DNA of 64,000 nt from positions 102,053-166,052 of the forward strand of contig CAZPLB010000002.1 in the NCBI GenBank assembly GCA_964587425.1, written 5' to 3'. This document shows positions 11,952 to 62,995 of this stretch, piece by piece. Origin of the DNA: an uncultured Gammaproteobacteria bacterium (lineage in GTDB: Bacteria > Patescibacteriota > Microgenomatia > UBA8517). The notes under the pieces are model-generated. The model had not been told where the DNA came from and made no database searches. It saw only the letters and a list, made by a program, of their open reading frames with translations. Made by a program: the position numbers and the translations under genes. The number at the start of each line of letters is the position of its first letter. Position 1 is the stretch's first letter.

Positions 11952-12602
11952 TTAGCTAGCTCCTTTTCCAGAAATCATTGCCCAGGGGCTCTTCAAAAGA
12001 ATAATGATATCAAACCAAATTGATTTACGTCTCGCATAATATGCATCCATTTCGATACGTTTATCAAAATTAACTTCACTTCTTCCCGTGGTTTGCCAAT
12101 AGCCAGTGATACCAGGCTTCACGGTCTGCATCTCCGCAACATACTTTTCTGTGCCAGGAAATTTTTGCTGTTGCTCAATGAGCTCATCGGGTAGATATGG
12201 TCTTGGACCAATAACACTCATTTCTCCTCGAAGCACATTAATAAGTTGGGGTATTTCATCTATTGAATGTCTGCGAATAAATTTTCCAACAGGAGTAATT
12301 CTTGGATCATTTGTAGGTTTATAGTTCCCAGAGCTATGCTTTTCGTCATATGCAATTCGATATTTTGGATGAGTTTTCTCCAACACATCAGCATTAACAA
12401 TCATTGATCTAAATTTATAAAGTCTAAAAATTTTTCCATTTTTTCCCATCCTTCTCATATGTGAATTACTCTTCTCAACAAAAATAGGTCCTTCAGAAGT
12501 CAATTTTATAATTATTGAGGTAATTAAAATAACAGGCGAGAAAACAACGAGAAGAACCAAAGACAAAAAAATATCTAAAGTTCTTTTGAAAAAATTATAC
12601 AT
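11952..12602 (-). CDS. polyprenyl-phosphate glycosyl-1-phosphate transferase (bacterial sugar transferase; priming PGT, WbaP/WcaJ C-terminal-domain type)
   Basis: FKRTLDIFLSLVLLVV...IKLTSEGPIFVEKSNSHMRRMGKNGKIFRLYKFRSM...VIGPRPYLPDE is the canonical small-PGT signature. Confidence 0.85.
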   Translation of the reverse strand: MYNFFKRTLDIFLSLVLLVVFSPVILITSIIIKLTSEGPIFVEKSNSHMRRMGKNGKIFRLYKFRSMIVNADVLEKTHPKYRIAYDEKHSSGNYKPTNDPRITPVGKFIRRHSIDEIPQLINVLRGEMSVIGPRPYLPDELIEQQQKFPGTEKYVAEMQTVKPGITGYWQTTGRSEVNFDKRIEMDAYYARRKSIWFDIIILLKSPWAMISGKGAS

Positions 12603-12610
12603 ATTAAAAG

Positions 12611-13693
12611 CTACTCCACATACTCTGGTTTTTCTTTTTCCAATTTTCCAAATAATTCTTTCACCTGTGCTGTTTTATTAAGATCGCAAACCAGGAGTCC
12701 ATTAGCAGTATCAATAACAGCTACATTATTTAGTCCAATTATCGATATCATTTTTTTACCCGGCCCTATAACTAAGTTTCCTTTAGATTCAATAAAATTA
12801 ACCTCAGCTCCCTCAGTCACGTCAGGTTTTGCTTCAGTTGCAAAAGCCTCGTAAAAAAGCTGCCATGTTCCAGCGTCCCTCCATCCAAAATCAAGGGGAA
12901 TTGTAACCCTTTCTCTACTTGGAATCTTTTCATAAAGGCCATAGTCAATAGAAATCTTCTCGAATTTATGGTATTCCCTAAAGAGTTCTGTCTCCCACAT
13001 AGGGGTATTGAGTTTATTCATAATTTTCATCAAACCTTTGTAAACTTCGGGTGCATATTTCTCGTAATAGGAAAGTAATATATCAGACCTCCAACAATCA
13101 TATCCAGTATGTATCAGGTAATTTCCTGATTTGAATAATTTCTTTGCAGTTGCCAAATCTGGTTTCTCAACATGCTTTTCAATCTCAAATATTTCATGTC
13201 CTGAAACTTCATCTACGGATGCCCCCATCTTCACCCATCCATTGTGAATACTTGGATAACTTGGCATTTGATCAATAGAAATAGGCTTGCCAGTTTCCTC
13301 TGTGTATTTTCCAGCTAACTTGGCGACCTTTAAAAATAACTCTTCTTTATCAATTATGTGGTCAGCCCATGAGAAAAATATTGCCTCTCCTGGGTATCTG
13401 GCATTAATAATTGCCGTGGCAAGACCAATCGCCCCCAAATTATCCTTGCGTTCAGGTTCCGCTATTAAATTCTTCTTTGGAATTTCAGGAGCTTGCTTCC
13501 TTACAAACTCAAGATATCTATCCTCTGTTGAGATAAAAATATCTTCAGGCTTAAATGCTTTTTTAAATCTATGAACAGTAAGCTCGAAAAATGACTTTCC
13601 ACCAATGAGTGGAAAAAACTGCTTTGGAAAACTCTTTCTTGAAGCAGGCCACATCCGTGTCCCGAACCCTCCGCAAAAAATGACAATCTTCAT
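12611..13693 (-). CDS. mannose-1-phosphate guanylyltransferase (sugar-phosphate nucleotidyltransferase)
   Basis: N-terminal KIVIFCGGFGTRMWPASRKSFPKQF corresponds to the GGxGTRLWPLSR motif of ManC/CpsB-type GDP-mannose pyrophosphorylases. 360 aa with no PMI domain. Confidence 0.75.
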   Translation of the reverse strand: MKIVIFCGGFGTRMWPASRKSFPKQFFPLIGGKSFFELTVHRFKKAFKPEDIFISTEDRYLEFVRKQAPEIPKKNLIAEPERKDNLGAIGLATAIINARYPGEAIFFSWADHIIDKEELFLKVAKLAGKYTEETGKPISIDQMPSYPSIHNGWVKMGASVDEVSGHEIFEIEKHVEKPDLATAKKLFKSGNYLIHTGYDCWRSDILLSYYEKYAPEVYKGLMKIMNKLNTPMWETELFREYHKFEKISIDYGLYEKIPSRERVTIPLDFGWRDAGTWQLFYEAFATEAKPDVTEGAEVNFIESKGNLVIGPGKKMISIIGLNNVAVIDTANGLLVCDLNKTAQVKELFGKLEKEKPEYVE

Positions 13694-14754
13694 ATTAGTT
13701 TTTCAAACTCCTTTTTGAATTTCTCCTTTGAAAACCTTTTTGCATTTTTCGTAATTTTGTCTTTACTCAATTTCGATTTTTTAAATCTTTCAATTGCACT
13801 AATTAAACTACTCACTTCAGAATCTTCAAAAAAGATTCCAGTAACACCCTCAATAACTGTATCAAGTGCCCCGCCCTTCTTAAAGGCGATAACAGGTGTA
13901 CCTGTGCTCTGCGCTTCAACTGCTACTAAACCAAAATCCTCTTCCTGTGGAAAGAGAAGTGCGCTTGCACCTTTATAGTATGTGAAAAGCTGGTTGTCTG
14001 TCAATTTGCCCAAGAATTTTACATTCTTCTTTGCCATTCTCTTAAGTCTTCCCTCCTCCCTCCCCACTCCAACAATGTAAAGAGGAAGCCCTAGTTCATT
14101 AAATGCTTCAATTGCCAAATCAACTTTCTTGTAGTTAACTAATCTACTTACTATCAAAAAATAATCCCCACTATTTTTTTTCACTTTTGTATTAAATTTC
14201 AAATCGTCAACAGGTGGAAAAATAATCTCAGATTCCCTTCCATAATATTTTTTAATCCTCCCTTGAACTACGGTTGATATCCCAACTAAAATGTCAGGTC
14301 GCGCTGCTGCAGCCAAATCCCATTTCCTGAGGTACGATATTGCTGGTTTTGAAATTTTTTTTAAATTTCCGTTTCCCAGATACTCATCATAGTGACTCCA
14401 GAGATACCTTGTTGGAGTCAAACAATATGAAATATGTTTTGTGTGACCCTTTGTAATTATTCCCTTAGCCGCCTCACTTGTGACTGAAATTACTAAATCA
14501 TAACCATCAAAGTTAAAACTCTCAAATGCAAGTGGCATCAAAAGAGGAAGATACTCATGGTTTCGCCTTGCACGAGGAACTTTTTGCAAAAATGAAGTTA
14601 TAATCTTTGGAAACACCTTTGCCCAAGGTGCACCTTTCTCGTCATATACAGATGTATAAAGAGGAGCATCTGGAAACATTTCATGTAGTGTAAGTAGAAC
14701 TCTTTCAGCTCCTCCCCATTTATTTACCCTATCGTATACAATCGCAACCTTCAT
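13690..14754 (-). CDS. GT4 (GT-B) glycosyltransferase
   Basis: C-terminal EEDFGLVAVEAQSTGTPVIA (EX7E). Start chosen at MKVAIVYDRV; the ORF extends back to 14802. Confidence 0.8.
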   Translation of the reverse strand: MKVAIVYDRVNKWGGAERVLLTLHEMFPDAPLYTSVYDEKGAPWAKVFPKIITSFLQKVPRARRNHEYLPLLMPLAFESFNFDGYDLVISVTSEAAKGIITKGHTKHISYCLTPTRYLWSHYDEYLGNGNLKKISKPAISYLRKWDLAAAARPDILVGISTVVQGRIKKYYGRESEIIFPPVDDLKFNTKVKKNSGDYFLIVSRLVNYKKVDLAIEAFNELGLPLYIVGVGREEGRLKRMAKKNVKFLGKLTDNQLFTYYKGASALLFPQEEDFGLVAVEAQSTGTPVIAFKKGGALDTVIEGVTGIFFEDSEVSSLISAIERFKKSKLSKDKITKNAKRFSKEKFKKEFEKLI

Positions 14755-14938
14755 ATATTTGGTAGTATATAATAAATAATATGGATGACTACGAAGACTC
14801 AAAAGTAAAATCTCAAGCTGAACTCAGAGTTGAACTTTTACTCCAAAAAAAGATAACTAGAGAGCAATATGGCTATTGGCTAAGAGCAGAAACTCAAGAC
14901 TCAGAAGACTGTCTACTCAAGAAAAACACTTTACCATA

Positions 14939-16013
14939 TCACCTCTGTGGCTCACCCGAAAGAAGATAAACTTCCAAGGTCTCTCTTGCCATTTTCTCCC
15001 ATGAATATTTTTTTACAAATCTTTTTCCTTCATCAATAATTCCTTTTCTTTCCTCATCTTTCATCTCCATAACTTTTCTCATTGCTTTTTCAATAGATTC
15101 AACACTAGTTGGATCAAAGTAAAAAACTTTATCCTCATACACTTCCTTGAAAACTGGAATATTTGAAGCAAGTACAACCGTTCCAGCCTTCATCGCCTCA
15201 AGCCCTGGTAGTCCAAACCCTTCAGAAAGTGATGGGTAAAGAAAACCTAGAGAATTTTTATATAATTCATCCAACTCCTCATCACCCACATATCCTAGTA
15301 ACTTCACATAATCATCTGCTCCGTGTTTCTTGATAGTTTTTTCCAAGCGCTTTGTAAAAACATTTCTTGAAGAAACAATCAAAAACTTAACCTCCTGCTT
15401 CGAAGTTTTCGTAAGCATCACAATTGCTTTTATGGTTCTCTCCAAGTTCTTGTGTGGGTATGCATTCCCCACATATAGAAAATAATTAGACTCCCTCATA
15501 TGTTACCTCCACCTTAACAGGATCGATCTTGAAATAATCAACAACTTCAGCTTTTACTGTCTCGCTTGGAACAATAATCTTCAAGGATGAATGTATGGCA
15601 TGCTTGAAAACTTTTTTGTATGCAAACCGCTTCACATGGTAAAAAGGTAGTGGAAGAGTTGTGGCCTCCCTCCCTTTTTGCTTGTGCATCAATATATCGT
15701 GAATGGTAACCACAAACCTCCCATTAAATAAAAGCGGAACATTGAAGTGCAAGAAATGTGTGATATCAGGCTCATACTTATGAATTATCTTTGGCAGTCT
15801 TATTTGTTCAGTCAAACTATAATGTTTGAAGTCAGCTAGTATTTTCTCCCAATTGTCTGGGAAGGTTAATTCATCAAAGTATTTCTTGCGAAGTAAAATT
15901 AGATATTCATTTTTAGTATCAATTTTGGCCAATTGATTTATTAGATTCATTGAATATCTTCCAAGACCTGCATGCTCCAGTCCATAAAAACGCCCGTCTA
16001 TAAGTATTCTCAT
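14939..16013 (-). pseudogene. GT4 glycosyltransferase split by a frameshift into two ORFs (15486..16013 N-terminal half, 14939..15499 C-terminal half)
   Basis: The upstream ORF carries the GT4 N-domain (MRILIDGRFYG..). The downstream ORF begins exactly at the conserved FLYVGNAYPHKNL and carries EGFGLPGLEAMKAGTVVLAS. The two overlap by 14 nt in different frames and total about 360 aa, a normal GT4 length. Confidence 0.5.
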
Positions 16014-16882
16014 ATAGGAACAACAACTCGCACCAATCTCAAAAACTTAATGCCGTAAATCCCTACAATTACTGCCATATTAAGTATTAGCGGATAACGG
16101 TTCCAAAGTCTATTCTTGTAAAAAATTTCCATCGAATTCACTCCTGCCATTACAAAACGCATTGTCCTTCTGCCCTTTTTACTGGCCTTTTTAATATGAA
16201 GTATTGAAACCTTTGGATAGTAAATAATCTTAGCACCAGTTTCCTTTATCTTCCAACACAAATCAATATCCTCTCCATCAAGAAAATATTCCTCACTAAA
16301 CCACCCCACCTCATCAAGAAGTTTCCTGCGAGTTAGAAAGTATGCCCCCTGTATTACATCAACTTCTTGTATCATGTCTGAGCTTTCATATTGATGCCAA
16401 TATCTTGCAAAAATTCTGGATGTCGGAAAAATTCTATCGAGTCCGCTAAAGTGAGTAAAGGAAACCCATGGAGTTGGAAAACTGCGTCTAGCATCTTTAT
16501 CTAAATTCCCATTTGGCAAAATAGTCTTGCAAGTTACCGCTCCAACATCGCTGTTTTCATCCAAGTATTTAAGAGTCTCATTAATTGTGTCTTTGTAAAC
16601 CTCAGTATCGCTATTCAAAAATAAAACATATTCGCCCTTCGTAAACTTTCTTGCAGAGTTATTCCCCCCTGCAAATCCCAAATTCTCTTTATTTACTACA
16701 ACCCTTACCTTAGATTTCCTGCTACCCAGTAAACTACTGGTAATGCGCTCACTCTCACTAGTACTGTTTTCAACCAAAACTATTTCGTAAGTAATACCTT
16801 TTGCATGGGCAATTACAGAATCAATACATCTGAGGGTCAAGTCTTTAGTGTTGTAATTTAAAATAATTACAGTTAATTTCAT
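16010..16882 (-). CDS. GT2 (GT-A) glycosyltransferase
   Basis: MKLTVIILNYNTKDLTLRCIDSV, then FLNSDTEV (DXD). Confidence 0.8.
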   Translation of the reverse strand: MKLTVIILNYNTKDLTLRCIDSVIAHAKGITYEIVLVENSTSESERITSSLLGSRKSKVRVVVNKENLGFAGGNNSARKFTKGEYVLFLNSDTEVYKDTINETLKYLDENSDVGAVTCKTILPNGNLDKDARRSFPTPWVSFTHFSGLDRIFPTSRIFARYWHQYESSDMIQEVDVIQGAYFLTRRKLLDEVGWFSEEYFLDGEDIDLCWKIKETGAKIIYYPKVSILHIKKASKKGRRTMRFVMAGVNSMEIFYKNRLWNRYPLILNMAVIVGIYGIKFLRLVRVVVPI

Positions 16883-16883: not shown

Positions 16884-18080
16884 TCAATTATTAGTTACTT
16901 CTTTGTATATAGGATCATGCAGCTTAACAATTTCTCTCCAATCAAAATTCTCCCTCACAAATTTTTGTCCCGCCTTTCCAATTCTATCTCTTAATTTAAA
17001 ATCTTTTAAAACCCGCAGTGTCTCGGTGGCCAATCCTTCAGAAGTATCGCTAATTAATACTTCCTTTCCATTTTCCAAATTTAGTCCTGCAACTCCAAGA
17101 CTCGTTGAGACAACAGGAAGCCCAGCAGCCATTGCTTCAAGTACCTTAAGTCTTGTCCCACCAGACCCTTTAATGGGTGCAACCATCACGCTCGCCCCAA
17201 GATAGGCATCTCTTGCATCAACTATCGATTCTGTTATCTCAATATCGTTCCTCTCCTTAGAAAGTTTAACTATAGATTCCGGTATTAGTCTCCCTGCTAT
17301 CCAAAGTTTCACACCCATCATTTGTTTTCGAATCTTTGGCCACACCTCGTCAATTAAAACCTCGACTGCCTCGCGGTTCTGAAGCCACTCAAAGTTGGTC
17401 ACCCCATACATTACTCGAGGCGGAACTTTTCTGGCCACTTTCTTGGCAACGTAATATGCTGTATCAACTCCATTTGGAATAACATCAACTTTAACACCTG
17501 TCAATTTCCCAAGCATGAATTCGCGGTCGGCGTCCGACACTGCAACCAACCTATTTGTTTTCTTCCAGTAGTAAAGTTCCCAAAAACGAAGCTTCAAAAT
17601 ATCAATGTAGTAAATCGGTCTCAATAGAAAAGGAACTTTAGTATCTACATAATGTTTATAAACCATATATTCAATAGTCTGTTCAACCAATATTGATGGT
17701 ACATTTGTTTTAGGAATATGGGGCATAACATAAAATGCCTCAGCATGGATTAAATCATACTTCTCACTCTCAAGTTCTTCCTTGATTGCTGCTTTTTCAG
17801 CAAATGAATAATTCCTGATAACTAGAAGTGGATACCAGCCAAATGCAGTTAAGAGTAAATTTCTTAAGGTCCAAGGAGATTTAGGTCTCATGAAGACTCT
17901 CACCTTTTTACAATATTTTTCAAGCTCCGGAACAAATCTCTTTTCTTTTTCATCTTTAATTAATGAAAACAAAGTAATCTCATGAGTTTTACTCATGTAT
18001 TTAATAAGATTGTACCATCTAGTCTGCCCACCAGAGGTTGACGTATTGGGAAGGAAAGGAACAAGCATTAATATCTTCAT
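16884..18080 (-). CDS. GT4 glycosyltransferase
   Basis: KGSGGTRLKVLEAMAAGLPVVST C-terminal GT4 motif. 398 aa. Confidence 0.8.
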   Translation of the reverse strand: MKILMLVPFLPNTSTSGGQTRWYNLIKYMSKTHEITLFSLIKDEKEKRFVPELEKYCKKVRVFMRPKSPWTLRNLLLTAFGWYPLLVIRNYSFAEKAAIKEELESEKYDLIHAEAFYVMPHIPKTNVPSILVEQTIEYMVYKHYVDTKVPFLLRPIYYIDILKLRFWELYYWKKTNRLVAVSDADREFMLGKLTGVKVDVIPNGVDTAYYVAKKVARKVPPRVMYGVTNFEWLQNREAVEVLIDEVWPKIRKQMMGVKLWIAGRLIPESIVKLSKERNDIEITESIVDARDAYLGASVMVAPIKGSGGTRLKVLEAMAAGLPVVSTSLGVAGLNLENGKEVLISDTSEGLATETLRVLKDFKLRDRIGKAGQKFVRENFDWREIVKLHDPIYKEVTNN

Positions 18081-18117: not shown

Positions 18118-18618
18118 ATGACAAATTGTGAAATTTGTAAAAACTCCAGAAAATGCCTTTTTGATGGGATGCCTCTTGATTACCTCTTTCAAAATCTAGA
18201 TCAAACCAATGGAGCAAAATGTGTTGAAGCAGGAAAGATAATATCAAATAGTCTACATATCCAAATTACTCAAGATACTTTAAACGGATATAGCCAAAAT
18301 GAGACCACTGAAATAGTAAATAAAGTATCGATACCTCTTGAAGAATATTTAGACTTACCGAATTTTTTTAATAAATTGAGGATGCCAAATAAACTTCAAC
18401 CTATTTTCAAGGAGATTGTGAAAGTAATAGACAAAAACGAGGAATATCCATTAGACATGCCCATGGGTGATGAGATATATACAATCCTATTCGAAAGCAA
18501 TGTCGATAGTAAACAGAAAATAAAAATTTTGAGAGCAATTGTTGTGGGAGTTGCACTTTGGACAGTAAATACTAGGGGAAAAGACAGAAAATCTATAGAA
18601 CCTCTAAGTTACGAATGA
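18118..18618 (+). CDS. hypothetical protein
   Basis: 166-aa ORF on the strand opposite the surrounding cluster. No recognisable motif. Confidence 0.3.
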   Translation: MTNCEICKNSRKCLFDGMPLDYLFQNLDQTNGAKCVEAGKIISNSLHIQITQDTLNGYSQNETTEIVNKVSIPLEEYLDLPNFFNKLRMPNKLQPIFKEIVKVIDKNEEYPLDMPMGDEIYTILFESNVDSKQKIKILRAIVVGVALWTVNTRGKDRKSIEPLSYE

Positions 18619-18666: not shown

Positions 18667-19710
18667 CTAGACATTAGCTATAGCTTTCAACAAAACGTCA
18701 GGTTTAATTGGCACACCATCAGGAACAATATTTAATCTCTCACTCATACCAAGCCAATTTGCCATACCGTTTACAGTCCTAACATAGTTAAGTGTGTTCA
18801 TTAGTGCGCTCCTCTCCCAACCACTTATGGGCCACATTCCTGTAACTTTATAAATTATCGATCTCGCCTCTTTCAACCTACTTCCGGACCTACAAATAGA
18901 AGGATGTAGTGCATCTATCAACTTATAAGTCCATTCTCCAAAACTGTCTTTAACAAAGACAACATTATCCTCTCCAACCAAATCTAATGTCTCCCCTGTA
19001 GTGTTAGTGTATTGAATTGCACGACTCAAAAAATCGCAAACAACATCCTTAAATCTGGGTTGGTTTTTGACAACTCCAAAAACTTTCTCCATCCTAGGGT
19101 ATACCTTTGCGAAATCAAAAATTGAAACTGTTCCAACATGTTTAACGTTTGACACTGCCTCAGTTGTCAATCTATGGTACGCATCTCTAACTTCTGGTAT
19201 ATGAATATCTGCATATCTCTCAGCATATCCCGAGGCCATAGATATTTTATCTGGGTTAAAAACTTCATGAGCTTTCTCTTGAATAGAGACCATACTCCAA
19301 ACATGTCCCAAAGAAAACTCTCTTACACAAGAAGGAGGGTTTTTTCCTTTTCTATATCTATCATATAACTCGCAAATTATTCGTTGATTAACAGGGATTT
19401 TTAGGTAGCAGCTCTGTTCACTCAATGTGTGTTCACTCCTAAAAAACTCCCTCAATTTTCCGAATCTTCTACTCTGCAGAGTAATTCTTTCTTTGGCATT
19501 ATCTCTATCTAATTGACCACATCCGTCTGAGCCTTGTTCTATATTTGTAAGCAATATATTAGCATCTACCTTAACCACCAGATCTGGATAAGAAGGTAAT
19601 TCGTAAACCAAATTCTGTCCACCTCTACCCAAAAACTGCGGCCCATACTTAGCAATTCTCCTGTGGGAGATGTCCGACACATCAAATTGTGAACTAAGAG
19701 TTTCAACCAT
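18667..19710 (-). CDS. atypical protein-kinase-like fold protein (possible glycan/small-molecule kinase)
   Basis: Gly-rich loop plus Lys: GRGGQNLVYELPSYPDLVVKV. Catalytic/metal-binding segment LDLVGEDNVVFVKDSFGEWTYKLIDALHP (D..N ... ID, the RIO/WaaP-like arrangement). Start chosen at MVETL; the ORF continues to 19812. Confidence 0.4.
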   Translation of the reverse strand: MVETLSSQFDVSDISHRRIAKYGPQFLGRGGQNLVYELPSYPDLVVKVDANILLTNIEQGSDGCGQLDRDNAKERITLQSRRFGKLREFFRSEHTLSEQSCYLKIPVNQRIICELYDRYRKGKNPPSCVREFSLGHVWSMVSIQEKAHEVFNPDKISMASGYAERYADIHIPEVRDAYHRLTTEAVSNVKHVGTVSIFDFAKVYPRMEKVFGVVKNQPRFKDVVCDFLSRAIQYTNTTGETLDLVGEDNVVFVKDSFGEWTYKLIDALHPSICRSGSRLKEARSIIYKVTGMWPISGWERSALMNTLNYVRTVNGMANWLGMSERLNIVPDGVPIKPDVLLKAIANV

Positions 19711-19786
19711 AAATTGTACGAAAAAGTACCAGATTCTAACACAAAAATGAATAAAACACTTAAAGAGGTTACACACAACCCAACTA

Positions 19787-37792: not shown

Positions 37793-37991
37793 TTATTATT
37801 AATTTAAACAGGGTAACAGCGACAAGAAAATAAAAAATCCAATTCCCAGCCCTAATTGCAAAACCCCAATGATTTGTTGCCAAAAGAAAGCCAGTTATCA
37901 GAAAACCAGTGAATGTTATACTAATAAAAATCTTATTGGTCATGAAATCAATTATACTAAAAATACTCCTCCCCATACTAATTGTAACCAC
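37779..37991 (-). other. small hydrophobic ORF overlapping the 5' end of 35285..37792 by 14 nt: either a separate small membrane protein or a frameshifted N-terminal extension
   Basis: 70-aa hydrophobic ORF in a different frame that overlaps the big gene's start. Confidence 0.2.
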
Positions 37992-54504: not shown

Positions 54505-56009
54505 AAAGTTATTTAAAAAAAAATAAGATTCAGATACTAATTATTACCCTAGTCTTTTTAGTTATTTGGCATAAAATCCTTTATCAAATCCCAATCGGAG
54601 AGGGTTACTACTATTTCGATAGAATCCAAATTATCAAACTGCAAGAACTCCTGCCAGATAAGGCACTCGCCACCTACGACATGTTCCCAAGAATTCTATT
54701 TACTTTTCTACAACCATTATTTAGAGACAATATTCTGCTTTATATTATTTTGCAGTTTACTTTTATGTTTTTTGTTTATCAAATTCTCTACTTCACTCTG
54801 CTAAAGATAACTAAGGATAAACTCTTAAGCCTTGGCTCCACCATATTATTTATATCAAACTACATTGGGTCGTTTTCAATATTGGGTACCGGAGGCTATC
54901 AGCGATTTATACAAAGATTTCCAAATTTAATTTTAATCCTCCCTGCTTTCTATTTTCTCGATAGATATTTAAAAAGTGAGAGAAGGAAAGATTTCGTTAA
55001 ATCATATTTTCTCTTCGCATTGAGTCTAGTGCTTGCGCATCACGTTGTATTTTGGTCATGGATCTTCATCATCTTTCCGCCAATAAATTCATTTCTTAGA
55101 AAAGAAAGGCTAAGTAAATTAATTAAATCGTTAAAAATAAGTTCACTATTTCTAGCTACCACTTATATACTGACCGTCTTTGATACACTTTCTAAACCAG
55201 ACAAACACACCATCCTTCAATTTATTAAAAATACCGAGTCCCTTCCTCAAAAGATTTTCTACCAACTCCCTATTGTTTTCTTTCCACCAAAACTTCTTCA
55301 ATATTTTCTAGATCATAGTAAATCATTATTATTTCCAACTTTGTTAATAGTATTAGTACTTATCTTAATTTCCATAAAACTATATAGAAATGAAAAAAAA
55401 TTATTGGCTATCTTTATTACCTTAACTTCTTCACTTTTATTAGTATGTTTCCTAACTCTTTATGCATATGGTGGAGTTCCAAATCCGCTACAGGGTGTAG
55501 GTGAAGACAGAATATACTTCGTGCAAATCCTTTTCACAAGCATAATTACTGGAATTTTTATTAAAGCATTCTTTGGAAAAAATAAAATACTTTATTCAAT
55601 TGTATGGGTATGTCTCCTCGTCTTCACTCTCAACAACAATACACAATTGATATGGAAAGGCATGGAGAGAATTCAGTACAAAGTAGAATTAGAGAGGATA
55701 TATATAAACTATATAAAGGGCAAGAAGAACGAGTTTGGAGGCAAACCAATTCTAATAATTTCACAGCCTCTTGCAGAAACAAGCAATTTCATTAAGCGCT
55801 TCTATATGCCTCCAGAAACAACATACATAACATTCCATGAAAACTGGCAAAATGATTTAACAAAAATATACTTTCAAAACAAAGATGTTCACGTAATAGA
55901 TTTTAGCTACGAATTAAAAGAGGGTGTCGTTGACGCAAAAACAATACAGTTAAAAGACTTAACCGAGGATTTCAAAAATGGTAATAAAATTAATACATTT
56001 AAATACTAA
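54501..56009 (+). CDS. polytopic membrane protein, putative GT-C-like
   Basis: 502 aa with more than 10 hydrophobic helices. Stop/start overlap with both neighbours. Confidence 0.4.
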   Translation: MKSYLKKNKIQILIITLVFLVIWHKILYQIPIGEGYYYFDRIQIIKLQELLPDKALATYDMFPRILFTFLQPLFRDNILLYIILQFTFMFFVYQILYFTLLKITKDKLLSLGSTILFISNYIGSFSILGTGGYQRFIQRFPNLILILPAFYFLDRYLKSERRKDFVKSYFLFALSLVLAHHVVFWSWIFIIFPPINSFLRKERLSKLIKSLKISSLFLATTYILTVFDTLSKPDKHTILQFIKNTESLPQKIFYQLPIVFFPPKLLQYFLDHSKSLLFPTLLIVLVLILISIKLYRNEKKLLAIFITLTSSLLLVCFLTLYAYGGVPNPLQGVGEDRIYFVQILFTSIITGIFIKAFFGKNKILYSIVWVCLLVFTLNNNTQLIWKGMERIQYKVELERIYINYIKGKKNEFGGKPILIISQPLAETSNFIKRFYMPPETTYITFHENWQNDLTKIYFQNKDVHVIDFSYELKEGVVDAKTIQLKDLTEDFKNGNKINTFKY

Positions 56010-56734
56010 TGAACTCTTTAGACAAACCAAAAACGGTGTTAGTTCACAAAAAAACAATTCAAGAAAACCGACAATTAAATGATTTATATATTGGCTTCTA
56101 TTCAAATCTCAAACAAATTAAACTTCCGAATGGAAAAATAATCGAATTGGGTTCAGGCGGCGGGTTCATAAAAGATATAATCCCTAACATGATAACATCA
56201 GACACCGTAAAAGGTCCTGGAATAGATAAAGTTTTCTCTGCAGAAAAAATCCCGTACAAAAATAATTCAGTGGCGTGTTTTTTTATGTTAAATGTTCTGC
56301 ACCATATTAAAAAATCCGAATCGGCAATTTACGAAATGCAAAGATGTCTTAAAAAAAATGGCAGGATAGTGATGATCGAGCCATATATCTCTCCATGGTC
56401 AAAATTTATTTATAAAAACTTTCACCGCGAAAACCTTGACGAAAAAGGTGGGTGGACAATTCAAGGAAAAGGAAGACTTACGGATGCAAATATTGCCCTA
56501 CCTTGGATAATATTTATTAGAGATAGAAAACTTTTTAAAAAAAGATTTCTCAAGTTAAAAATTATGAGAGTAAAACCACACACCCCTTTCACATATATTC
56601 TCTCTGGCGGTCTCACCAAGCCTCCTTTAGTACCATATTTTATTTTCAATATACTAAACTCCTTTGAAAAAAAGATTCCATTCTTGAATACTAAACTAGG
56701 GTTATTTATGACAGTAGAAATTAAAAAAACGTGA
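56009..56734 (+). CDS. class I SAM-dependent methyltransferase
   Basis: IIELGSGGGFIKD, FMLNVLHHI, KKNGRIVMIEP. Confidence 0.65.
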   Translation: MNSLDKPKTVLVHKKTIQENRQLNDLYIGFYSNLKQIKLPNGKIIELGSGGGFIKDIIPNMITSDTVKGPGIDKVFSAEKIPYKNNSVACFFMLNVLHHIKKSESAIYEMQRCLKKNGRIVMIEPYISPWSKFIYKNFHRENLDEKGGWTIQGKGRLTDANIALPWIIFIRDRKLFKKRFLKLKIMRVKPHTPFTYILSGGLTKPPLVPYFIFNILNSFEKKIPFLNTKLGLFMTVEIKKT

Positions 56735-56785: not shown

Positions 56786-57715
56786 ATGCAATCAATTTCA
56801 ATTGTCATACCGGTTTTCAACGAGCAGTCAAATTTAAAACCTCTATACATCAGATTAGACTCTGTCGTCAAAAAAATTTCAAAATCCCACGAGATAATTT
56901 TCGTTAACGATGGATCAACAGATAAAAGTCTAGATACTCTAATACAATTAAGGAAAAAGGATAAAAGGATAAAAATAATTTCTTTCACCAGAAACTTCGG
57001 TCATATGCAGGCAATTGATGCAGGGTTACAGATGAGTTCTGGCAACAAAGTGGTTGTAATGGATGCAGATCTTCAAGACCCTCCAGAAATAATCGAGGCT
57101 ATGTGGAATAAATCAAAAACTGGATACAACATTGTATATGGAACAAAAAAGGGAAGAAAAGAAAGCATCGTCAAAAAATCCCTCTTCTCAATGTTCTATA
57201 AAATACTGAACAAGGTTTCAAAATTAAAAATGCCGGAAAACGCAGGTACGTTTTGTCTCCTAGATAGAAATGCAGTTGAAATAATATGCGCTCTTCCCGA
57301 AAGAAATAAATATTTCAGTGGTCTAAGAGTCTGGACCGGTCTCAAAAGTACTGGGGTCACCTACGAAAGAGCTAGCCGCTACAAAGGTCGTCCCAAACCC
57401 ATGTCAAAACTTCTTTCTTTAGGCTTTGACGGAATAATATCCTTCTCATACTTGCCGCTTAGAGTTGCAAGTATTATTGGATTTATTTTTGCTTCAATAT
57501 CTTTTCTTTTCATATTAATTGTCATCATTGCAAGGTTTGCTTTTGACAAAGGTATAATTGGTTGGGCATCAACAATGACCACAATTCTTTTCATAGGAGG
57601 AGTGCAGCTTATTACTCTTGGCATAATAGGCGAATATCTTGCTAGAATTTATGATGAAGTCAAAGCGCGCCCACAATATATAATATCGGAAAAAATAGGT
57701 TTTAATAAAAAATGA
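56786..57715 (+). CDS. polyprenol-phosphate sugar synthase (GtrB/ArnC/DPM1-like GT2 with two C-terminal TM helices)
   Basis: ISIVIPVFNEQSNL, FVNDGSTDKS, MDADLQDPPEII, and a C-terminal pair of TM helices (LGIIGEYLARIY). Confidence 0.8.
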   Translation: MQSISIVIPVFNEQSNLKPLYIRLDSVVKKISKSHEIIFVNDGSTDKSLDTLIQLRKKDKRIKIISFTRNFGHMQAIDAGLQMSSGNKVVVMDADLQDPPEIIEAMWNKSKTGYNIVYGTKKGRKESIVKKSLFSMFYKILNKVSKLKMPENAGTFCLLDRNAVEIICALPERNKYFSGLRVWTGLKSTGVTYERASRYKGRPKPMSKLLSLGFDGIISFSYLPLRVASIIGFIFASISFLFILIVIIARFAFDKGIIGWASTMTTILFIGGVQLITLGIIGEYLARIYDEVKARPQYIISEKIGFNKK

Positions 57716-58422
57716 TTATCTCCCACAAATATAAATACATATTCATCAAGCCAAAAAAAATAGCTGGCACAAGTATTGAAGTAGCCCTATCACAAAGTTT
57801 GGGAGAAAAAGATATAATGCCTCCTCTTACAAAATTCTCACCTTTTCATGACAAAGATAAATATACTTTAACCCCGCAAAATTATAAAGGATTCTATGAT
57901 CACCTTTCTCCAGATAAAATAAAGAAGAAAATTGGAAATAAAATATGGAAAGAGTATTTCAAATTTACTGTTGTCAGAAACCCATGGGATTTGGTTGTTT
58001 CAAGCTATTGGTGGGAAGTAAACAAAAAAGTATCCTTGAATGATTACTTGAGAGTAGTGAACGTTAGAGGACTAATCGATTATGCAAAAGATTTCAGAAA
58101 AATTAAAAAGCCGAAAAGTTTCTCAGACTTCGTAAGAAGTCTTCCAAAAGCATATATCAATACAAATTACTACTTCGAAACAAACGGAAAACCTCTTGCA
58201 GATTTTTATATTCGATATGAGAACATAGACAGTGATTACAAGAAAGTCTGTAAAAAACTAAAAATTCCATATGTAAAACTTTTGCACCTGAAATCCAAAA
58301 CTAGAAAAAACAAAAAACACTACTCATATTATTACAACAAAGAGACAAAAAAAATAGTTGCTGATATTTTCAAAAAAGAAATAAAGTACTTTAATTACCG
58401 ATATCTTTCTCGACCCTTTTGA
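57712..58422 (+). CDS. sulfotransferase family protein
   Basis: 5'-PSB-like YIFIKPKKIAGTSIEVAL (ifihipKtgGTS pattern) and 3'-PB-like FTVVRNPWDLVVSSYWW (RdPveRlvSay pattern). Its start codon overlaps the GtrB-like stop. Confidence 0.55.
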   Translation: MIISHKYKYIFIKPKKIAGTSIEVALSQSLGEKDIMPPLTKFSPFHDKDKYTLTPQNYKGFYDHLSPDKIKKKIGNKIWKEYFKFTVVRNPWDLVVSSYWWEVNKKVSLNDYLRVVNVRGLIDYAKDFRKIKKPKSFSDFVRSLPKAYINTNYYFETNGKPLADFYIRYENIDSDYKKVCKKLKIPYVKLLHLKSKTRKNKKHYSYYYNKETKKIVADIFKKEIKYFNYRYLSRPF

Positions 58423-59410
58423 AGTCTTTATAAAATTTACCCCAATCGACCGGAACCATTAATTCTTTGAACATTACTCCATCTGACACTACTCTAAGTT
58501 TTTGAATTTTAGATCTCTTTCTCAGAGTAGAAGGTAAATGAACTAAGTTCCACCATAACGCTCTAAAAATCATAGTGGCATTTTTAATACTTCCCTTTAA
58601 AAGAAATGCGAATGCAATTCCAAGTGAAATAATAATATGAATAGGTAAAACTACAATTAAATTCAATAGTCCAAAGCTTTTAAGAAGTGAACAAATTCTA
58701 TTTTTATAATAATGAAAATTAATATTTAATACATTAAGTCTCCTTATTGTGTATCCAACTTTATGGTAAATCTTTGCATTAGGAAAAAAAACAACCCGCT
58801 TACCCACAAGCCATACCTTCCAACAAAAATCGCTTTCTTCAAAATAAGAAACAAAATCATCATCGAATAAACCAACCTTATCCACAACATCTTTCCTAAT
58901 TAGAATGCAAGCCCCTTTGGCGCTAAATATATCTCTTTCATTTTCAAATTCCTTTGAATCCTTTTGTAGAAAACCCCAATGGTCTAAAAACCCAATTCGT
59001 GTCATGAATGAACCGGCGTTATCCATCAGTTCTGGCTTGTCCATAATTAAAATCTTCGGCTGAATTGCACCAATAGTATCGTCTTCCATCATTCTCTGAA
59101 CCATCTTACTTAAGAAACTAACTTCAACTTTTGTATCATTGTTAAGTAGAAGAACATACTTACCTTTAGAAACAGCAACTCCTTGATTATTTGCCTTTGC
59201 AAATCCCACATTCTCTTTATTCTTTATCGTCTTCACTTTTATTCCTCTGAAGCTTTCAAGTTTTTCAATCGAATCGTCAGTAGACCCATTATCAACAACA
59301 ACTAACTCCCAATTTCGATAGTCAATTTTAGACAAAGATTTAATGCAATCTTCAAAAACGCTGCCACCATTCCAATTTGCAATAATTATTGAAACCAATG
59401 GTTCTTTCAT
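58391..59410 (-). CDS. GT2 glycosyltransferase
   Basis: LVSIIIANWNGGSVFEDCIKSL, VVVDNGSTDDS, LLLNNDTKV. Confidence 0.75.
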   Translation of the reverse strand: MKEPLVSIIIANWNGGSVFEDCIKSLSKIDYRNWELVVVDNGSTDDSIEKLESFRGIKVKTIKNKENVGFAKANNQGVAVSKGKYVLLLNNDTKVEVSFLSKMVQRMMEDDTIGAIQPKILIMDKPELMDNAGSFMTRIGFLDHWGFLQKDSKEFENERDIFSAKGACILIRKDVVDKVGLFDDDFVSYFEESDFCWKVWLVGKRVVFFPNAKIYHKVGYTIRRLNVLNINFHYYKNRICSLLKSFGLLNLIVVLPIHIIISLGIAFAFLLKGSIKNATMIFRALWWNLVHLPSTLRKRSKIQKLRVVSDGVMFKELMVPVDWGKFYKDFKRVEKDIGN

Positions 59411-60255
59411 AGATATTTAAACATTTTAAAAAAGGTTTTAATAAATCTAACTAAACCAACAGCTTTCAAAAAACCAATCGCAGCTGCAGAGGTTTCAAGG
59501 AACCTGACAACTAAAAGTGTAACTCCCATAATAGGATTAAAAATAAACTGTTTCCAATTCCGGAAATACGCCATCCTCAAAATGAGGATCCCCTGCTTCG
59601 AAATTAAGTCTGGATGCTTCTGAGCATAACCTGCGCTCAAGTATGCATAATAATATTTCTTCTTTAACTGCTTTATTAGAGTTAACCCAGTTTCGTGATG
59701 CAAGATCCATGATTTAACTCTCCCAATCGTATATTTTGTACTCATCCTCTTTGGTAGATCATAGTCCTCCGTGCCAGTTAAATTGATATCGTATCCACCA
59801 AACTCCATGAATGCTAGTCTGTCAAAAAATCTAGCAACTTCTACCGTTGAATCTCCCACATACATACTTCTTTCAAATTTTCGAACTTCAGCCATGAAAC
59901 CCTTTCCAACAGTCCTTTCTGGAATAACTAAACCCATGTTGCTGTGAATGTTATTTACGCAGTCTTTGATAACACCTGGCGTCAACTCCATATCCGCGTC
60001 CAAAAACAAAAAATATTTACCTTTAGCCTCTTGTGCACCAAAATTTCTCTGAACACTTCGCTCTGCATGGCTTCGTAAGAAAACTTTATCAGTATGGTGC
60101 TTGGCTATGTCAACCGTCCTATCGCTTGACCCATCATCAACAACTATTGCTTCCCAATTCTCATAACTCTGTTCTTTTATAGAAACTAGAAGTCTCTCAA
60201 TATTTTCTTCCTCGTTAAAAACAGGGATTATTACTGAAACCAACGATTGTGACAT
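59407..60255 (-). CDS. GT2 glycosyltransferase
   Basis: LVSVIIPVFNEEENIERLL, VVDDGSSDRT, FLDADMEL. Confidence 0.75.
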   Translation of the reverse strand: MSQSLVSVIIPVFNEEENIERLLVSIKEQSYENWEAIVVDDGSSDRTVDIAKHHTDKVFLRSHAERSVQRNFGAQEAKGKYFLFLDADMELTPGVIKDCVNNIHSNMGLVIPERTVGKGFMAEVRKFERSMYVGDSTVEVARFFDRLAFMEFGGYDINLTGTEDYDLPKRMSTKYTIGRVKSWILHHETGLTLIKQLKKKYYYAYLSAGYAQKHPDLISKQGILILRMAYFRNWKQFIFNPIMGVTLLVVRFLETSAAAIGFLKAVGLVRFIKTFFKMFKYL

Positions 60256-60279: not shown

Positions 60280-61251
60280 TTGGGTAAGTGGTATAATCCA
60301 ATCGAAATGAAGAAACAGCAATTTATTTCATTCGTCATTCCAGCCAAAAATGAAGAAGAATCAGTTGCTCCTCTGTTCCAAGAAATCACGAAAAACATAA
60401 AAAATATAACAAACAAATTTGAAGTTATATTTGTTGACGATGGCTCGACAGATAATACCTTCCAAGAAATCACAAAACTCAGGAAAAAAAACAAAAAGGT
60501 AAAAGTATTAAAGTTGAGAGGTTGGCATGGAAAATCTATAGCTCTTAAGTCCGGATTTGAATATGCACGTGGAGAAATTATAATCACAATGGATGCAGAT
60601 CTCCAAGACAATCCCAAAGAAATAAAAAGATTTATAGATAAAATAAACGAAGGGTTTGACCTTGTCTCCGGTTGGAAGAAAAAAAGACACGATCCGATAG
60701 CCAAGACATTCCCATCAAAAATAGGCAATTGGACAACAAGACTACTAACAGGTGTAAAAATCCACGACCTTAATTGCGGTTTTAAAGCATATAGATCAGA
60801 AGTTGTTAAAAATCTCAATTTATACGGTGAACTTTACAAATACATCCCTGTACTAGTTGAGAAACAAAATTATAAAGTTACTGAAATTATAGTCGACCAC
60901 CGAAAAAGAAAATTTGGCTCATCAAAATTTGGCTGGGAAAGAAACATGAAAGGTTTTCTCGACATGTTAACAATTGTCCTCATAACCAAATATTTAAAAA
61001 GGCCTGGTCACTTCTTTGGAACTGCAGGTTTCATTTCATTTTTCGCTGGTTTTATAATTGGCCTATATATTGCATATCTAAGAATAACAACTGGGAGCAT
61101 TCAATATAGACACCCGCTTCTTTTTTTGGGAATACTCTTGATGACAATCGGAGTACAGCTTGTAACAACAGGCTTGCTAGCCGAGATGATCACCAGTTTT
61201 AACCAAAAGGGTCAGTCAAGCGCTTCACTCATCGAGAAGATATTAACATGA
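60280..61251 (+). CDS. polyprenol-phosphate sugar synthase (GtrB/ArnC-like GT2 plus C-terminal TM helices)
   Basis: ISFVIPAKNEEESV, FVDDGSTDNT, MDADLQDNPKEI, C-terminal TM pair. The likely true start is MKKQQF at 60307. Confidence 0.8.
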   Translation: MGKWYNPIEMKKQQFISFVIPAKNEEESVAPLFQEITKNIKNITNKFEVIFVDDGSTDNTFQEITKLRKKNKKVKVLKLRGWHGKSIALKSGFEYARGEIIITMDADLQDNPKEIKRFIDKINEGFDLVSGWKKKRHDPIAKTFPSKIGNWTTRLLTGVKIHDLNCGFKAYRSEVVKNLNLYGELYKYIPVLVEKQNYKVTEIIVDHRKRKFGSSKFGWERNMKGFLDMLTIVLITKYLKRPGHFFGTAGFISFFAGFIIGLYIAYLRITTGSIQYRHPLLFLGILLMTIGVQLVTTGLLAEMITSFNQKGQSSASLIEKILT

Positions 61252-62183
61252 CAAAAAAAACAATATCTGTTGTAATCCCCTGCCACAACGAAGAAAAAAA
61301 CATCCCGCACCTAATACCCGCGATAATTAAAAATTTGCCCAAAAAATATAACTACGAAATTATCCTTGTTGATGATGGTTCAAAGGATTCAACTTTCTTT
61401 CAAATTCAAAATATTGCCAAAAAAAATAAAAAAGTAAAAGGTATCGCACTCCACAGAAACTTTGGTCATCAGGCAGCATTGTTGGCAGGAGCTCAAATGA
61501 CCAAGGGCAACGCAGTAATAACGATGGATGCAGACTTCCAACACCCCCCTGAATTAATTCCTAAAATAACATCCCTCTGGGAAAAAGGTTACGATTTAGT
61601 TCAAATGCAAAAAAAAGAAGTGAAGTCAAAGAATATAATTAAACACTCAATTCGAAAATTAGGTTACTCCATCTGGGAAAAAGTAAGCGGTGGCGTATTA
61701 GTTCCAGGTGTATCAGACTTTAGATTAATGGATGCTAAAATCTGTGAATACTTAGTAGAATCTCAAGAAAGAGTAATCTTTTTAAGGGGTTTAACCAATT
61801 TGGCTGCAAGAAAGCCTATTACAATTCCATACCAAGTTGCAAAAAGAAAATTCGGCAAATCCTCCTATACATTTAATATGTTTGTAAACATGTTTATAAA
61901 TGGTTTCATTTCATTTAGCACTTTCCCTCTGAGAATTGCCGCGATAACCGGCTTCGCCATGATTTTAATATCTGGAACACTCCTCACATTGGATATAATA
62001 TTGGCAACGATTACCCACAAAAGAATAATTCAAGGGTTTACAACACTGGCATTTTTGATAATCATATTAAATGGGTTCCTTATTTTTTATATGGGAATTA
62101 TTGGAGAATATCTTGGTGTAATTTTCAAAGAGGTTAAAAAAAGACCGAAATTTTTAATTGAAAGAACAGTCAACATAAAATGA
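61248..62183 (+). CDS. polyprenol-phosphate sugar synthase (GtrB/ArnC-like GT2 plus C-terminal TM helices)
   Basis: ISVVIPCHNEEKNI, LVDDGSKDST, MDADFQHPPELI, C-terminal TM pair (IIGEYLGVIF). Confidence 0.8.
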   Translation: MTKKTISVVIPCHNEEKNIPHLIPAIIKNLPKKYNYEIILVDDGSKDSTFFQIQNIAKKNKKVKGIALHRNFGHQAALLAGAQMTKGNAVITMDADFQHPPELIPKITSLWEKGYDLVQMQKKEVKSKNIIKHSIRKLGYSIWEKVSGGVLVPGVSDFRLMDAKICEYLVESQERVIFLRGLTNLAARKPITIPYQVAKRKFGKSSYTFNMFVNMFINGFISFSTFPLRIAAITGFAMILISGTLLTLDIILATITHKRIIQGFTTLAFLIIILNGFLIFYMGIIGEYLGVIFKEVKKRPKFLIERTVNIK

Positions 62184-62995
62184 AATGTGTAGTTTGTAGA
62201 AAAGACAATTGGAGTAAAAAGTACAAAACACTCCTTAAATGTGGAGGCTGTGGTTTTGTCCGCGCAAATGATAAATTCTTTAAAATAGATCCAAAGAAAA
62301 TATATTCTAGACAATACTTCAATGGAGATGATTACTTTGATTATGAATCTGAAGAAAATGCACTCAAAGTAAACTTCAGAAATAGACTAAACAGGATACT
62401 AAAGTATAGAAAAAATGGCAAACTCCTTGAAATAGGGTGCGCTTATGGTTATTTTCTAGAGTTAGCAAGCAATAATTTTAAGACATATGGTATCGATCTA
62501 GATAAAGAAACCACCAGAATTGCCAAGAAGAATTCAAAATCAAAAATTTATACAGGTGATTTAATAAAAACAAATGTTGGTAAAAACTATGACATCATCT
62601 GCATGTTTGATGTCATTGAACATTTGAAATATCCTGATTTGTATTTCAAAAAAATATATAAAATCTTAAAACCAAACGGTGTCGTGGTGATAGAAACTGG
62701 TGATATTGGATCCACCTTGGCAAAAATTCAAAAAGAAAAATGGAGATTGATTAAACCTCCATTTCATCTGCAATATTTTGACAGAAAAACTCTCCACCAA
62801 TTTTTGTCTAAGAATAAACTCGAAGTCAAACTTTCAGAACATACAAGCTTTGAGAGAACATTAAGTCAAACTATCTACAGACTCCACCCATCTCCAGTAA
62901 CAAACAAAATCTCGGAATACATCCCTAAATTTTCCTTCTCTATAAATACAAACGATATATTATTTGTTATCGCTCAAAAAACGATATCTAACTAA
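62180..62995 (+). CDS. class I SAM-dependent methyltransferase with an N-terminal C4 zinc ribbon
   Basis: CVVCRKDNW...CGGCGF, then LLEIGCAYGYFLE, GIDLD, MFDVIEHL. Confidence 0.65.
   Translation: MKCVVCRKDNWSKKYKTLLKCGGCGFVRANDKFFKIDPKKIYSRQYFNGDDYFDYESEENALKVNFRNRLNRILKYRKNGKLLEIGCAYGYFLELASNNFKTYGIDLDKETTRIAKKNSKSKIYTGDLIKTNVGKNYDIICMFDVIEHLKYPDLYFKKIYKILKPNGVVVIETGDIGSTLAKIQKEKWRLIKPPFHLQYFDRKTLHQFLSKNKLEVKLSEHTSFERTLSQTIYRLHPSPVTNKISEYIPKFSFSINTNDILFVIAQKTISN

Follow-up and report, generated by a model that had tools for sequence, protein, structure and literature searches.

Bacteria of the Candidate Phyla Radiation (CPR, Patescibacteria) account for a large share of bacterial diversity and live attached to or dependent on other cells, but next to nothing is known of their cell-surface chemistry. 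A 64,000-nucleotide stretch of contig CAZPLB010000002.1 (assembly GCA_964587425.1), here called the window, raises the question of what such a cell would build with a dense array of glycan-biosynthesis genes, and whether that array forms a single unit. The original prediction described positions 11952-62995 as a single locus and inferred for it a mannose-rich, probably methylated and sulfated product. Our analysis indicates that this region is probably an envelope-glycoconjugate assembly locus of a Microgenomates-group bacterium, organized around a core that is colinear throughout the clade.

Assignment of gene families, open reading frame (ORF) by ORF with Pfam and NCBIfam scans, confirmed that 11952-62995, which is about 80% of the window, is a genuine glycan-biosynthesis cluster. 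It holds 46 genes whose summed lengths amount to 99% of the span, and 32 of the 37 same-strand junctions overlap or leave at most 10 bp. From 11952 to 53235 all genes lie on the minus strand except 18118, 24048 and 37909 (genes are referred to by their first position), and strands alternate from 53281 rightward. The predicted priming phosphoglycosyltransferase (PGT), GDP-mannose pyrophosphorylase-like gene, Wzx flippase and Wzy/ligase-like protein were each matched by family models, with a single PGT and a single Wzx for the whole region. All six predicted methyltransferases (starting at 32509, 44297, 50487, 52519, 56009 and 62180) are of the S-adenosylmethionine (SAM) type. The predicted 17 glycosyltransferases (GTs) of the GT-A and GT-B folds were recovered as 11 GT2 and 6 GT4 genes, one GT4 being split, but the four polyprenyl-phosphate-sugar synthases that had been counted in addition are already among them, leaving a Leloir set of six GT4 and about seven GT2 enzymes. 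Ten multi-pass proteins of 452-948 amino acids (aa), each with 7-14 transmembrane (TM) segments predicted from hydropathy, complete the set of transferases. The original prediction had not named four further features: an HAD phosphatase, a WcaF-type acetyltransferase, a PRK07233-type FAD oxidoreductase and a CBM32/F5-8C domain on the GT-C protein 46005. Recent duplication was ruled out as the source of the many GTs, all paralogue pairs being at most 38% identical.

An array of this kind might arise if an assembler joined unrelated glycan loci. Proteins of the window are present on a 195-kb NCBI contig of a metagenome-assembled genome and in run SRR9179563. Independently assembled Logan contigs (SRR9179563) equal window positions 4384-15488, 22908-30788 and 30759-47163, each at 100% and over 34.6 kb in total. 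They break at 15488 and at about 30.77 kb and leave 15489-22907 and 47164-64000 uncovered, as a mis-join would allow, but the first break falls between the two halves of one GT4 gene, two of the contigs (L111 and L001) overlap at 30759-30788, and the gene order across the uncovered stretches is repeated in other genomes. The contig end at the split GT4 suggests population heterogeneity at that site, not a mis-join. Because of the perfect Logan matches and the recurring gene order, a chimera is unlikely, and we regard it as scarcely credible.

The comparison with related genomes that the original prediction had proposed was informative. We scanned species-representative genomes with a profile of the family of gene 39831, which gave 24 loci, and metagenomes with the family of gene 30712, which gave 336 relatives, of which 39 loci of at least 12 kb were analyzed; the fetched loci were limited to 10-kb flanks. 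Named homologues came from Daviesbacteria, Woesebacteria, Shapirobacteria, Blackburnbacteria and 'Microgenomates', all within the Microgenomates group of Patescibacteria. Both scans returned the same order, (48404)-46005-44998-44297-42678-39831-small membrane ORF-37909 (opposite strand)-35285-34039-33209-32509-30712, continuing 30712-29783-28941-27586-26453-25251-24686-23514-22625-21271-19787-(16884). This central block of about 34 kb, at ~16.9-50.5 kb of the window, is 35-80% identical in amino-acid sequence among relatives, and its order was found in practically all contigs of sufficient length, among them whole or nearly whole genomes of 0.8-1.3 Mb. Several public metagenome-assembled genomes with the block (including L005 and L006) are titled 'uncultured Gammaproteobacteria' or 'Woesearchaeota archaeon', titles that look like mislabelling or misbinning.

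Colinearity on this scale bears on the idea of a strain-variable, horizontally acquired island of capsule or O-antigen type without significance for the lineage as a whole. The GC content of the cluster, 0.32-0.35 against 0.35-0.40 in the flank (the whole window is ~35% GC), the few lineage-specific insertions and the split GT4 would fit such an island. The block 16884...48404 is nevertheless present in Daviesbacteria, Woesebacteria and Blackburnbacteria as well as in dozens of metagenomic contigs, and mobile-element and tRNA genes are lacking in and beside the region. A mobile element was in fact ruled out, since the region is without integrase, transposase or tRNA genes and its Rfam scan was empty. 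We consider the island very improbable overall, and for the 16.9-50.5 kb core it is largely refuted; the clade-wide order points to lineage-typical core envelope machinery. The set of GT-C membrane transferases had likewise been called unusually large. In relatives, however, 5-10 large multi-TM proteins are encoded at most 10 kb from the AftD-like gene, so richness in GT-C enzymes is a trait of the clade and not a peculiarity of this genome.

The predicted count of about ten GT-C enzymes is correct. Pfam models for PMT or PMT_2 match five of them, all on the minus strand: 19787..21274 (PMT_2, 54.8 bits; conserved D53/D61), 27586..28944 (PMT_2, 62.7 bits; conserved D24-E25 after TM1), 30712..32100 (PMT_2/GT87-like; conserved E41), the 693-aa protein at 48404..50485 (PMT type; PMT 40 bits, PMT_2 36 bits) and, weakly, the 540-aa protein at 42678..44300 (PMT_2, 20 bits; conserved D29-E30). 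The remaining five, at 35285..37792 (minus strand, 835 aa; conserved D30), 37909..39750 (plus strand, 613 aa), 39831..42677 (minus strand, 948 aa), 46005..48407 (minus strand, 800 aa) and 54501..56009 (plus strand, 502 aa), gave no glycosyltransferase family match in Pfam or NCBIfam, even at E<=10, and phmmer searches of the PDB with these large proteins returned nothing relevant for the membrane part. With no direct family match on the window proteins, the labels 'AftD-like' and 'YfhO-like' used in the original prediction needed an independent test.

We aligned family profiles with hhalign, using alignments of orthologues from the related loci and the Wzx and Wzy families as controls. The 35285 family matched the 39831 family at 99.8% (E 1.5e-27) and the 37909 family at 95.8%; 46005 matched 42678 at 98.8%, 42678 matched 30712 at 94.4%, and 48404 matched 19787 at 96.9%. 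The controls stayed below 3% against all GT-C families, and all ten multi-TM proteins joined one GT-C network. Its weakest link is that of 54501 (77.7%), a family without a Pfam model, whose structural model settles the GT-C assignment: for both AlphaFold2 (AF2) models that we built, the top structural matches were exclusively GT-C. An acidic motif after TM1 is a hallmark of GT-C enzymes (PMC8035078). A D or E shortly after TM1 is conserved in eight of the family alignments, 54501 has an invariant E34, and a WQDDN motif in 46005 was noted by eye only. In the ten GT-C proteins the acidic motif is predicted to lie in the first extracytoplasmic loop.

The likeness to mycobacterial AftD was examined through 39831. 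It has hundreds of homologues at 35-42% identity, and about half of these carry PF11847 (GT-C_AftD); 39831 itself did not match PF11847 even at E<=10, and a 32-sequence profile of the family found no PDB chain by sequence, AftD included. An AF2 model built from 32 homologues (pLDDT 83.9, pTM 0.82) contains 13 TM helices, a beta-rich external domain and a C-terminal TM helix. In a Foldseek comparison with the PDB, AftD ranked first (6w98, E 8.4e-18), then 6wby and 6wbx; these three mycobacterial AftD entries gave E values of 8e-18 to 4e-16 with TMq 0.51-0.56, and STT3, PglB (~1e-5) and AftA came next. Thus the AftD label, which found no direct match at the sequence level, holds for the modeled fold, and 39831 and its paralogue 35285 are AftD-like in fold though the PF11847 test failed. 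The broader resemblance to mycobacterial arabinogalactan and lipoarabinomannan (LAM) synthesis stands at the fold level for this one enzyme. Since no genes of the decaprenyl-phosphate-arabinose pathway were seen in the window, the donor of 39831 is probably other than that of AftD.

The YfhO label fared similarly. The YfhO model PF09586 did not match the 37909-39750 protein itself in Pfam at E<=10, but when 26 proteins were scanned (13 each of the 37909 and 35285 families), YfhO was matched by two and PTPS_related by four; the L002 orthologue of 37909 gave a weak YfhO match. In every relative, gene 37909 sits on the opposite strand, and the most apt description for it is a GT-C with a distant relationship to YfhO. 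The 800-aa protein 46005 carries an external F5/8 type C domain (F5_F8_type_C, 41 bits) for which the PDB sequence matches were CBM32 chains. The probable role of this CBM32-like domain, and of the large external domains in 39831 and 35285, is to hold the glycan as it grows. Standard domain annotation misses half of the GT-C enzymes in this region, and the glycan capacity of CPR genomes is thus probably under-counted.

The mechanism best supported by this gene content is a two-compartment assembly line, in line with the dual architecture that had been predicted: cytoplasmic PGT, GT2, GT4, Wzx and Wzy_C genes stand beside many extracytoplasmic GT-C enzymes and GtrB/DPM1-like synthases. On the cytoplasmic face, the small WbaP-type PGT would prime undecaprenyl phosphate, and the six GT4 and about seven GT2 Leloir enzymes would lengthen the chain from nucleotide sugars, GDP-mannose being one likely donor. 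The chain could be decorated by a WcaF-type acetyltransferase and the SAM methyltransferases before Wzx moves the lipid-linked glycan to the outer face, where the Wzy_C protein may polymerize it or hand it to an acceptor. At the same time, polyprenyl phosphate would be loaded with single sugars by four synthases, three of GtrB/ArnC type and one of DPM1/AglJ type, and after flipping the ten GT-C enzymes, three of them with large external and probably carbohydrate-binding domains, would use these lipid-linked sugars for external elongation and branching. Beyond the gene families, GT-C folds, first-loop acidic motif, operon-like packing, synteny and conservation observed here, we infer the donors, the order of steps, the flippase for lipid-linked monosaccharides, the acceptor and the product.

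The most likely product is a lineage-typical lipoglycan or secondary cell-wall polysaccharide. Its methylation and acetylation are plausible and its sulfation is uncertain. The qualifier mannose-rich is a weak one, with one ManC-like gene and the generic names of the PMT families as its sole support.

Several observations weigh against this assembly line or its product. No GtrA-type flippase was matched by any ORF in Pfam scans of the window, which has one Wzx, and no LCP-family ligase was found there. Protein O-oligosaccharyltransferases, too, have a Wzy_C domain, so that a protein could be the acceptor. The polyprenyl-phosphate-sugar synthases are placed in the poorly conserved right arm, outside the conserved core. 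With this arm poorly represented in relatives, and with the left end (11952-16882) beyond the 10-kb flanks of every fetched locus, the claim of one locus with one product is not supported. One GT4 of the locus is split, and neither Pfam nor NCBIfam gives a donor specificity for any enzyme. Finally, the small membrane protein that 22 of 24 related genomes encode directly after the AftD-like gene (e.g., L011:12910-13278) is missing from the window at 39750-39831. This protein has 113-163 aa, 2-5 predicted TM segments, the motif LLRSAGYF..PF...WAERT.Y and no named family that we could see; it may serve as a flippase or as an accessory subunit. That it is hidden or fused here was ruled out by a six-frame search without a match.

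The uneven conservation invites a reading of the region as several independent adjacent modules, i.e., a Wzx/Wzy locus, a GT-C core and a variable Gtr-like arm, each with its own product or acceptor. The right arm (~50.5-63 kb) is only patchily shared, and the hypothetical gene 18118, the orphan 18667 and the phosphatase gene 24048 are absent from relatives, whereas the core is conserved. The trio 51217-50487-48404 occurs in one Daviesbacteria locus (L011), the triad 53281-54501-56009, encoding a dolichyl-phosphate (Dol-P)-hexose-transferase-like GT2, a GT-C and a methyltransferase, occurs in other contexts on two contigs (L029 and L030), and strands switch at 53235/53281 and beyond. Independent modules are harder to reconcile with the Leloir GT and GT-C genes that are interleaved and translationally coupled across 19787-50485, with the retention of this interleaved order in many genomes, and with the one PGT and one Wzx that serve the entire region. 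We consider separate modules possible but doubtful.

The Wzy_C domain and the PMT-type enzymes also suggest general protein glycosylation, in which the Wzy_C protein would transfer the undecaprenyl-diphosphate-linked glycan as a PglL/PilO-type O-oligosaccharyltransferase and the PMT-type GT-C enzymes would O-glycosylate S-layer, pilin or other surface proteins, with polyprenyl-phosphate sugars as direct donors. PgfS is part of a protein-glycosylation system in Streptococcus mutans, and one synthase in the window is PgfS-like at 252 bits; five GT-C proteins match PMT or PMT_2 models, and the lack of an LCP ligase in the window fits this explanation as well. Among the GT-C enzymes that add decorations to teichoic acids and wall polysaccharides, however, PMT_2 is the most frequent domain as well (PMC8035078, Table 2). 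The AftD-like and CBM32-bearing proteins have external beta-rich domains of a type thought to bind polysaccharide acceptors (PMC8035078), and a set of ten GT-C and 13 Leloir GTs far exceeds known systems of protein glycosylation. We consider protein glycosylation rather unlikely, though clearly more probable than the island or the chimera.

Envelope-glycan assembly around the conserved core leads to a more far-reaching possibility, which we put forward tentatively and at less than even odds. The 16.9-50.5 kb block would direct synthesis of an undescribed major envelope heteropolysaccharide or lipoglycan that defines the Microgenomates, is assembled by nine or ten GT-C enzymes mostly on the outside of the membrane, and is a functional counterpart of mycobacterial arabinogalactan/LAM or of teichoic acids. 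If so, cells with genomes of ~1 Mb would spend roughly 4-6% of them on this glycan block, and the genes would include a GT-C family (54501) and several accessory proteins (among them 23514 and, in relatives, the small membrane protein encoded after the AftD-like gene) that have no described family. A block this large, kept in the same order in several candidate phyla with genomes of ~0.8-1.3 Mb, implies that its product is important to their biology, for example in keeping the envelope intact, in attachment to hosts or in defence against phages. The block also offers conserved GT-C enzymes with predicted structures, synthase-GT-C pairs and a marker for the glycan in enrichments. Full-text searches of the literature brought up no account of this cluster, or of loci rich in GT-C genes, in CPR; one paper mentioning Patescibacteria (PMC12419801) is unrelated to the cluster, and another proposes PIM-like mannolipids in a Saccharibacterium on the basis of annotation only (PMC6031116). 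Each component family falls into a known superfamily; unusual are the number of GT-C enzymes, the colinearity across a group of phyla with minimal genomes and the several unannotated families.

The left part of the region opens on the minus strand with the PGT at 11952..12602, which is of the small WbaP/WcaJ C-domain type (Bac_transf 200.8, EPS_sugtrans 252, WbaP 234 bits). It adjoins a DUF4012 membrane protein at 9874..11898 (minus strand; PF13196, 81.9 bits), an adjacency repeated in Logan contig L004; this protein is a possible true left boundary, with RecO following. Further upstream, at 6032-8589 on the minus strand, an N4/N6 DNA methylase, a Development-and-Cell-Death (DCD) domain protein and a DUF2130 protein stand in a row; they may constitute a defence-type or restriction module that has no relation to the glycan genes. 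The mannose-1-phosphate guanylyltransferase-like (ManC-like) gene at 12611..13693 (minus strand; NTP_transferase and ManC_GMP_beta-helix; GMP_PMI 199 bits) has the GMP domain only, the GMP_PMI match spanning profile positions 3-349. It is followed on the same strand by a GT4 of the GT-B fold at 13690..14802 (Glycos_transf_1, 98.7 bits) and by the split GT4 at 14939..16013, with an N-half of Glyco_transf_4 type (15486-16013) and a C-half of Glycos_transf_1 type (14939-15499). The N-half ends in ...VEVTYEGV and a stop, the C-half restarts at MRESNYFLYVGN, and the usual linker is gone. A frameshift or pseudogene, or else a strain-variable site, is probable, and L004 stops exactly at this junction (15488).

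A GT2 at 16010..16882 (minus strand; Glycos_transf_2, 76 bits) leads to the GT4 at 16884..18080 (minus strand), the leftmost gene seen in the conserved block, which has a 62% identical orthologue in L080 directly after the 19787 orthologue. L080 is the sole relative reaching this position and has no counterpart of the 166-aa hypothetical protein at 18118..18618 (plus strand, no Pfam family), nor of the gene at 18667..19812 (minus strand) between its 19787 and 16884 orthologues. The latter had been called kinase-like, a label for which we found no confirmation: the protein has no Pfam match even at E<=10 and no PDB sequence match, its glycine-loop motif (GRGGQNLVYE...VVKV) was seen by eye only, and it has one homologue among 5.8 billion proteins. 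The Wzy_C-domain protein at 21271..22650 (minus strand; 40 bits, cutoff 31.7), which resembles a polymerase, ligase or O-oligosaccharyltransferase, is conserved in 16 loci, and the GT2 at 22625..23524 (minus strand) in 19. Between the GT2/Wzy_C pair and the acetyltransferase gene, relatives keep a 170-aa protein without a family (23514..24026, minus strand; orthologues in 22 loci, 31-78% identity) that has one TM helix at each terminus. This topology recalls a miniature chain-length regulator, which is speculation. Wzz/PCP regulators gave no family match in the window, where PGT, Wzx and Wzy_C are present, and 23514-24026 and the DUF4012 protein are candidate stand-ins by topology alone.

An HAD-family phosphatase on the plus strand at 24048..24692 (HAD_2, 104 bits) is in none of the related loci and represents a lineage-specific insertion. 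The conserved minus-strand series resumes with the WcaF-family hexapeptide O-acetyltransferase at 24686..25240 (Hexapep; PRK10502, 104.8 bits; up to 80% identity in relatives) and two GT4 genes at 25251..26456 (Glycos_transf_1, 131.6 bits) and 26453..27607, each conserved in 26 loci. Beyond the GT-C gene 27586 lie a GT2 at 28941..29783 (Glycos_transf_2, 128 bits; 34 loci) and a GT4 at 29783..30733, which is conserved in 39/39 loci, as are the SAM methyltransferase at 32509..33219 (Methyltransf_23, 109 bits) and the GT2 at 33209..34042. A 146-aa ORF without a family at 32085..32525 was called as a gene in the Logan contig too, and the Wzx/MOP-family flippase occupies 34039..35304 (Polysacc_synt and Polysacc_synt_3). 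Further right, still on the minus strand, a SAM methyltransferase at 44297..45001 and a GT2 with a C-terminal TM helix at 44998..45969 (orthologues 64-71% identical) stand between the GT-C genes 42678 and 46005.

In the right arm, an FAD-dependent oxidoreductase of the PRK07233/amine-oxidase fold at 51217..52491 (Amino_oxidase, 95.8 bits; NF005560, 407.8 bits, above cutoff) is placed among methyltransferases and the PMT-type GT-C 48404 and has a 55% identical orthologue in Daviesbacteria L011; its substrate might be the polyprenol carrier or a lipid-linked sugar. It and its two neighboring SAM methyltransferases, at 50487..51224 (orthologue in L011) and 52519..53235, lie on the minus strand. 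The four predicted polyprenyl-phosphate-sugar synthases, all on the plus strand, were recovered as three full-length PgfS/ArnC-type enzymes and one AglJ-like protein. The three, at 56786..57715 (PgfS 252, ArnC 173.6 bits), 60280..61251 (ArnC 171.8, PgfS 130, AglJ 89.7 bits) and 61248..62183 (PgfS 228.9, ArnC 179.6 bits), align end to end with the PgfS/ArnC models at 130-252 bits and have C-terminal TM helices. Their scores fall below the equivalog cutoffs (500 for PgfS), and their sugar specificity was therefore left unassigned. The fourth, 53281..54504 (AglJ 97.9, DPhHxTase 47 bits), is an AglJ/Dol-P-hexose-transferase-like GT2 without a TM helix but with an extra N-terminal domain; its homologues in L029 and L030 have 371-391 aa. 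By eye, its residues 1-170 look like the C-terminal half of a class I methyltransferase. The triad that it opens ends with the SAM methyltransferase at 56009..56734 (plus strand).

The predicted sulfotransferase at 57712..58422 (plus strand) is borderline. PF03567 (Sulfotransfer_2) scores 22.8 bits (cutoff 22; E 1e-4), the match covering nearly the whole profile, and PKKIAGTS and VRNPWDLVVSSY motifs (VRNPW..S; of the PKxxGTS and RNPxxxxxS type) were recognized by eye, but NCBIfam and the PDB gave no match, and no genes for synthesis of 3'-phosphoadenosine-5'-phosphosulfate (PAPS) are in the window. Two GT2 genes follow on the minus strand (58391..59410 and 59407..60255), and the arm closes with a SAM methyltransferase at 62180..62995 (plus strand; Methyltransf_23, 83.8 bits). 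The end of this gene is overlapped by the gene of a 338-aa protein without a family at 62960-63976 (minus strand), by eye beta-rich with a discoidin-like stretch. The cluster may continue past the end of the window.

Among known systems, the assembly of arabinogalactan and LAM in mycobacteria and corynebacteria (AftA-D, EmbA-C and PimE, with polyprenyl-phosphate-sugar donors) shares with this locus the use of many extracytoplasmic GT-C enzymes on a lipid-primed glycan. The layout of 39831 is also that of AftD, its best structural match, with the GT-C module N-terminal, a large beta-rich domain outside the membrane and a TM helix at the C-terminus, and here a paralogue (35285) stands beside the AftD-like gene. 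In contrast, the identity of 39831 to AftD is only about 10%, no UbiA-type transferase or DprE1/E2 homologues were seen in the window, and mycolate and galactan genes are missing here. The host is a CPR bacterium with a small genome, and the genes form one packed colinear block that includes Wzx and Wzy_C.

Multi-component transmembrane glycosylation systems such as GtrABC, CsbB/GtcA/YfhO, GacI/J/K/L and Csd have been reviewed (PMC8035078), and three-component systems for pentofuranoses have been described (PMC11127046). Like them, the locus has membrane-linked GT-A synthases (56786, 60280 and 61248), GT-C enzymes with an acidic loop motif, and a synthase that adjoins its GT-C (53281-54501); a Wzx-type flippase may replace GtrA, as proposed for GacK. 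Those systems add single side-chain sugars, each module having one GT-C. In this window GtrA-family proteins were not detected, ten GT-C genes stand among backbone genes, and 9/10 of them are within the part of the locus found in relatives.

With Wzx/Wzy-dependent loci for O-antigen, capsule and exopolysaccharide, the region shares a PGT, a set of GT2 and GT4 genes, an acetyltransferase, Wzx and Wzy_C in an operon-like array. Such loci are hypervariable between strains and rarely have GT-C enzymes, while here the genes stay colinear throughout a group of candidate phyla, and no Wzz/PCP or Wza-type export genes were recognized in the window. The combination of PgfS-like synthases (252 and 229 bits) with PMT-type GT-C enzymes recalls the Pgf system of S. 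mutans and actinobacterial Ppm1/Pmt O-mannosylation. It differs from both in synthase scores below the equivalog cutoff of 500, in a target adhesin gene not identified here and in having far more enzymes.

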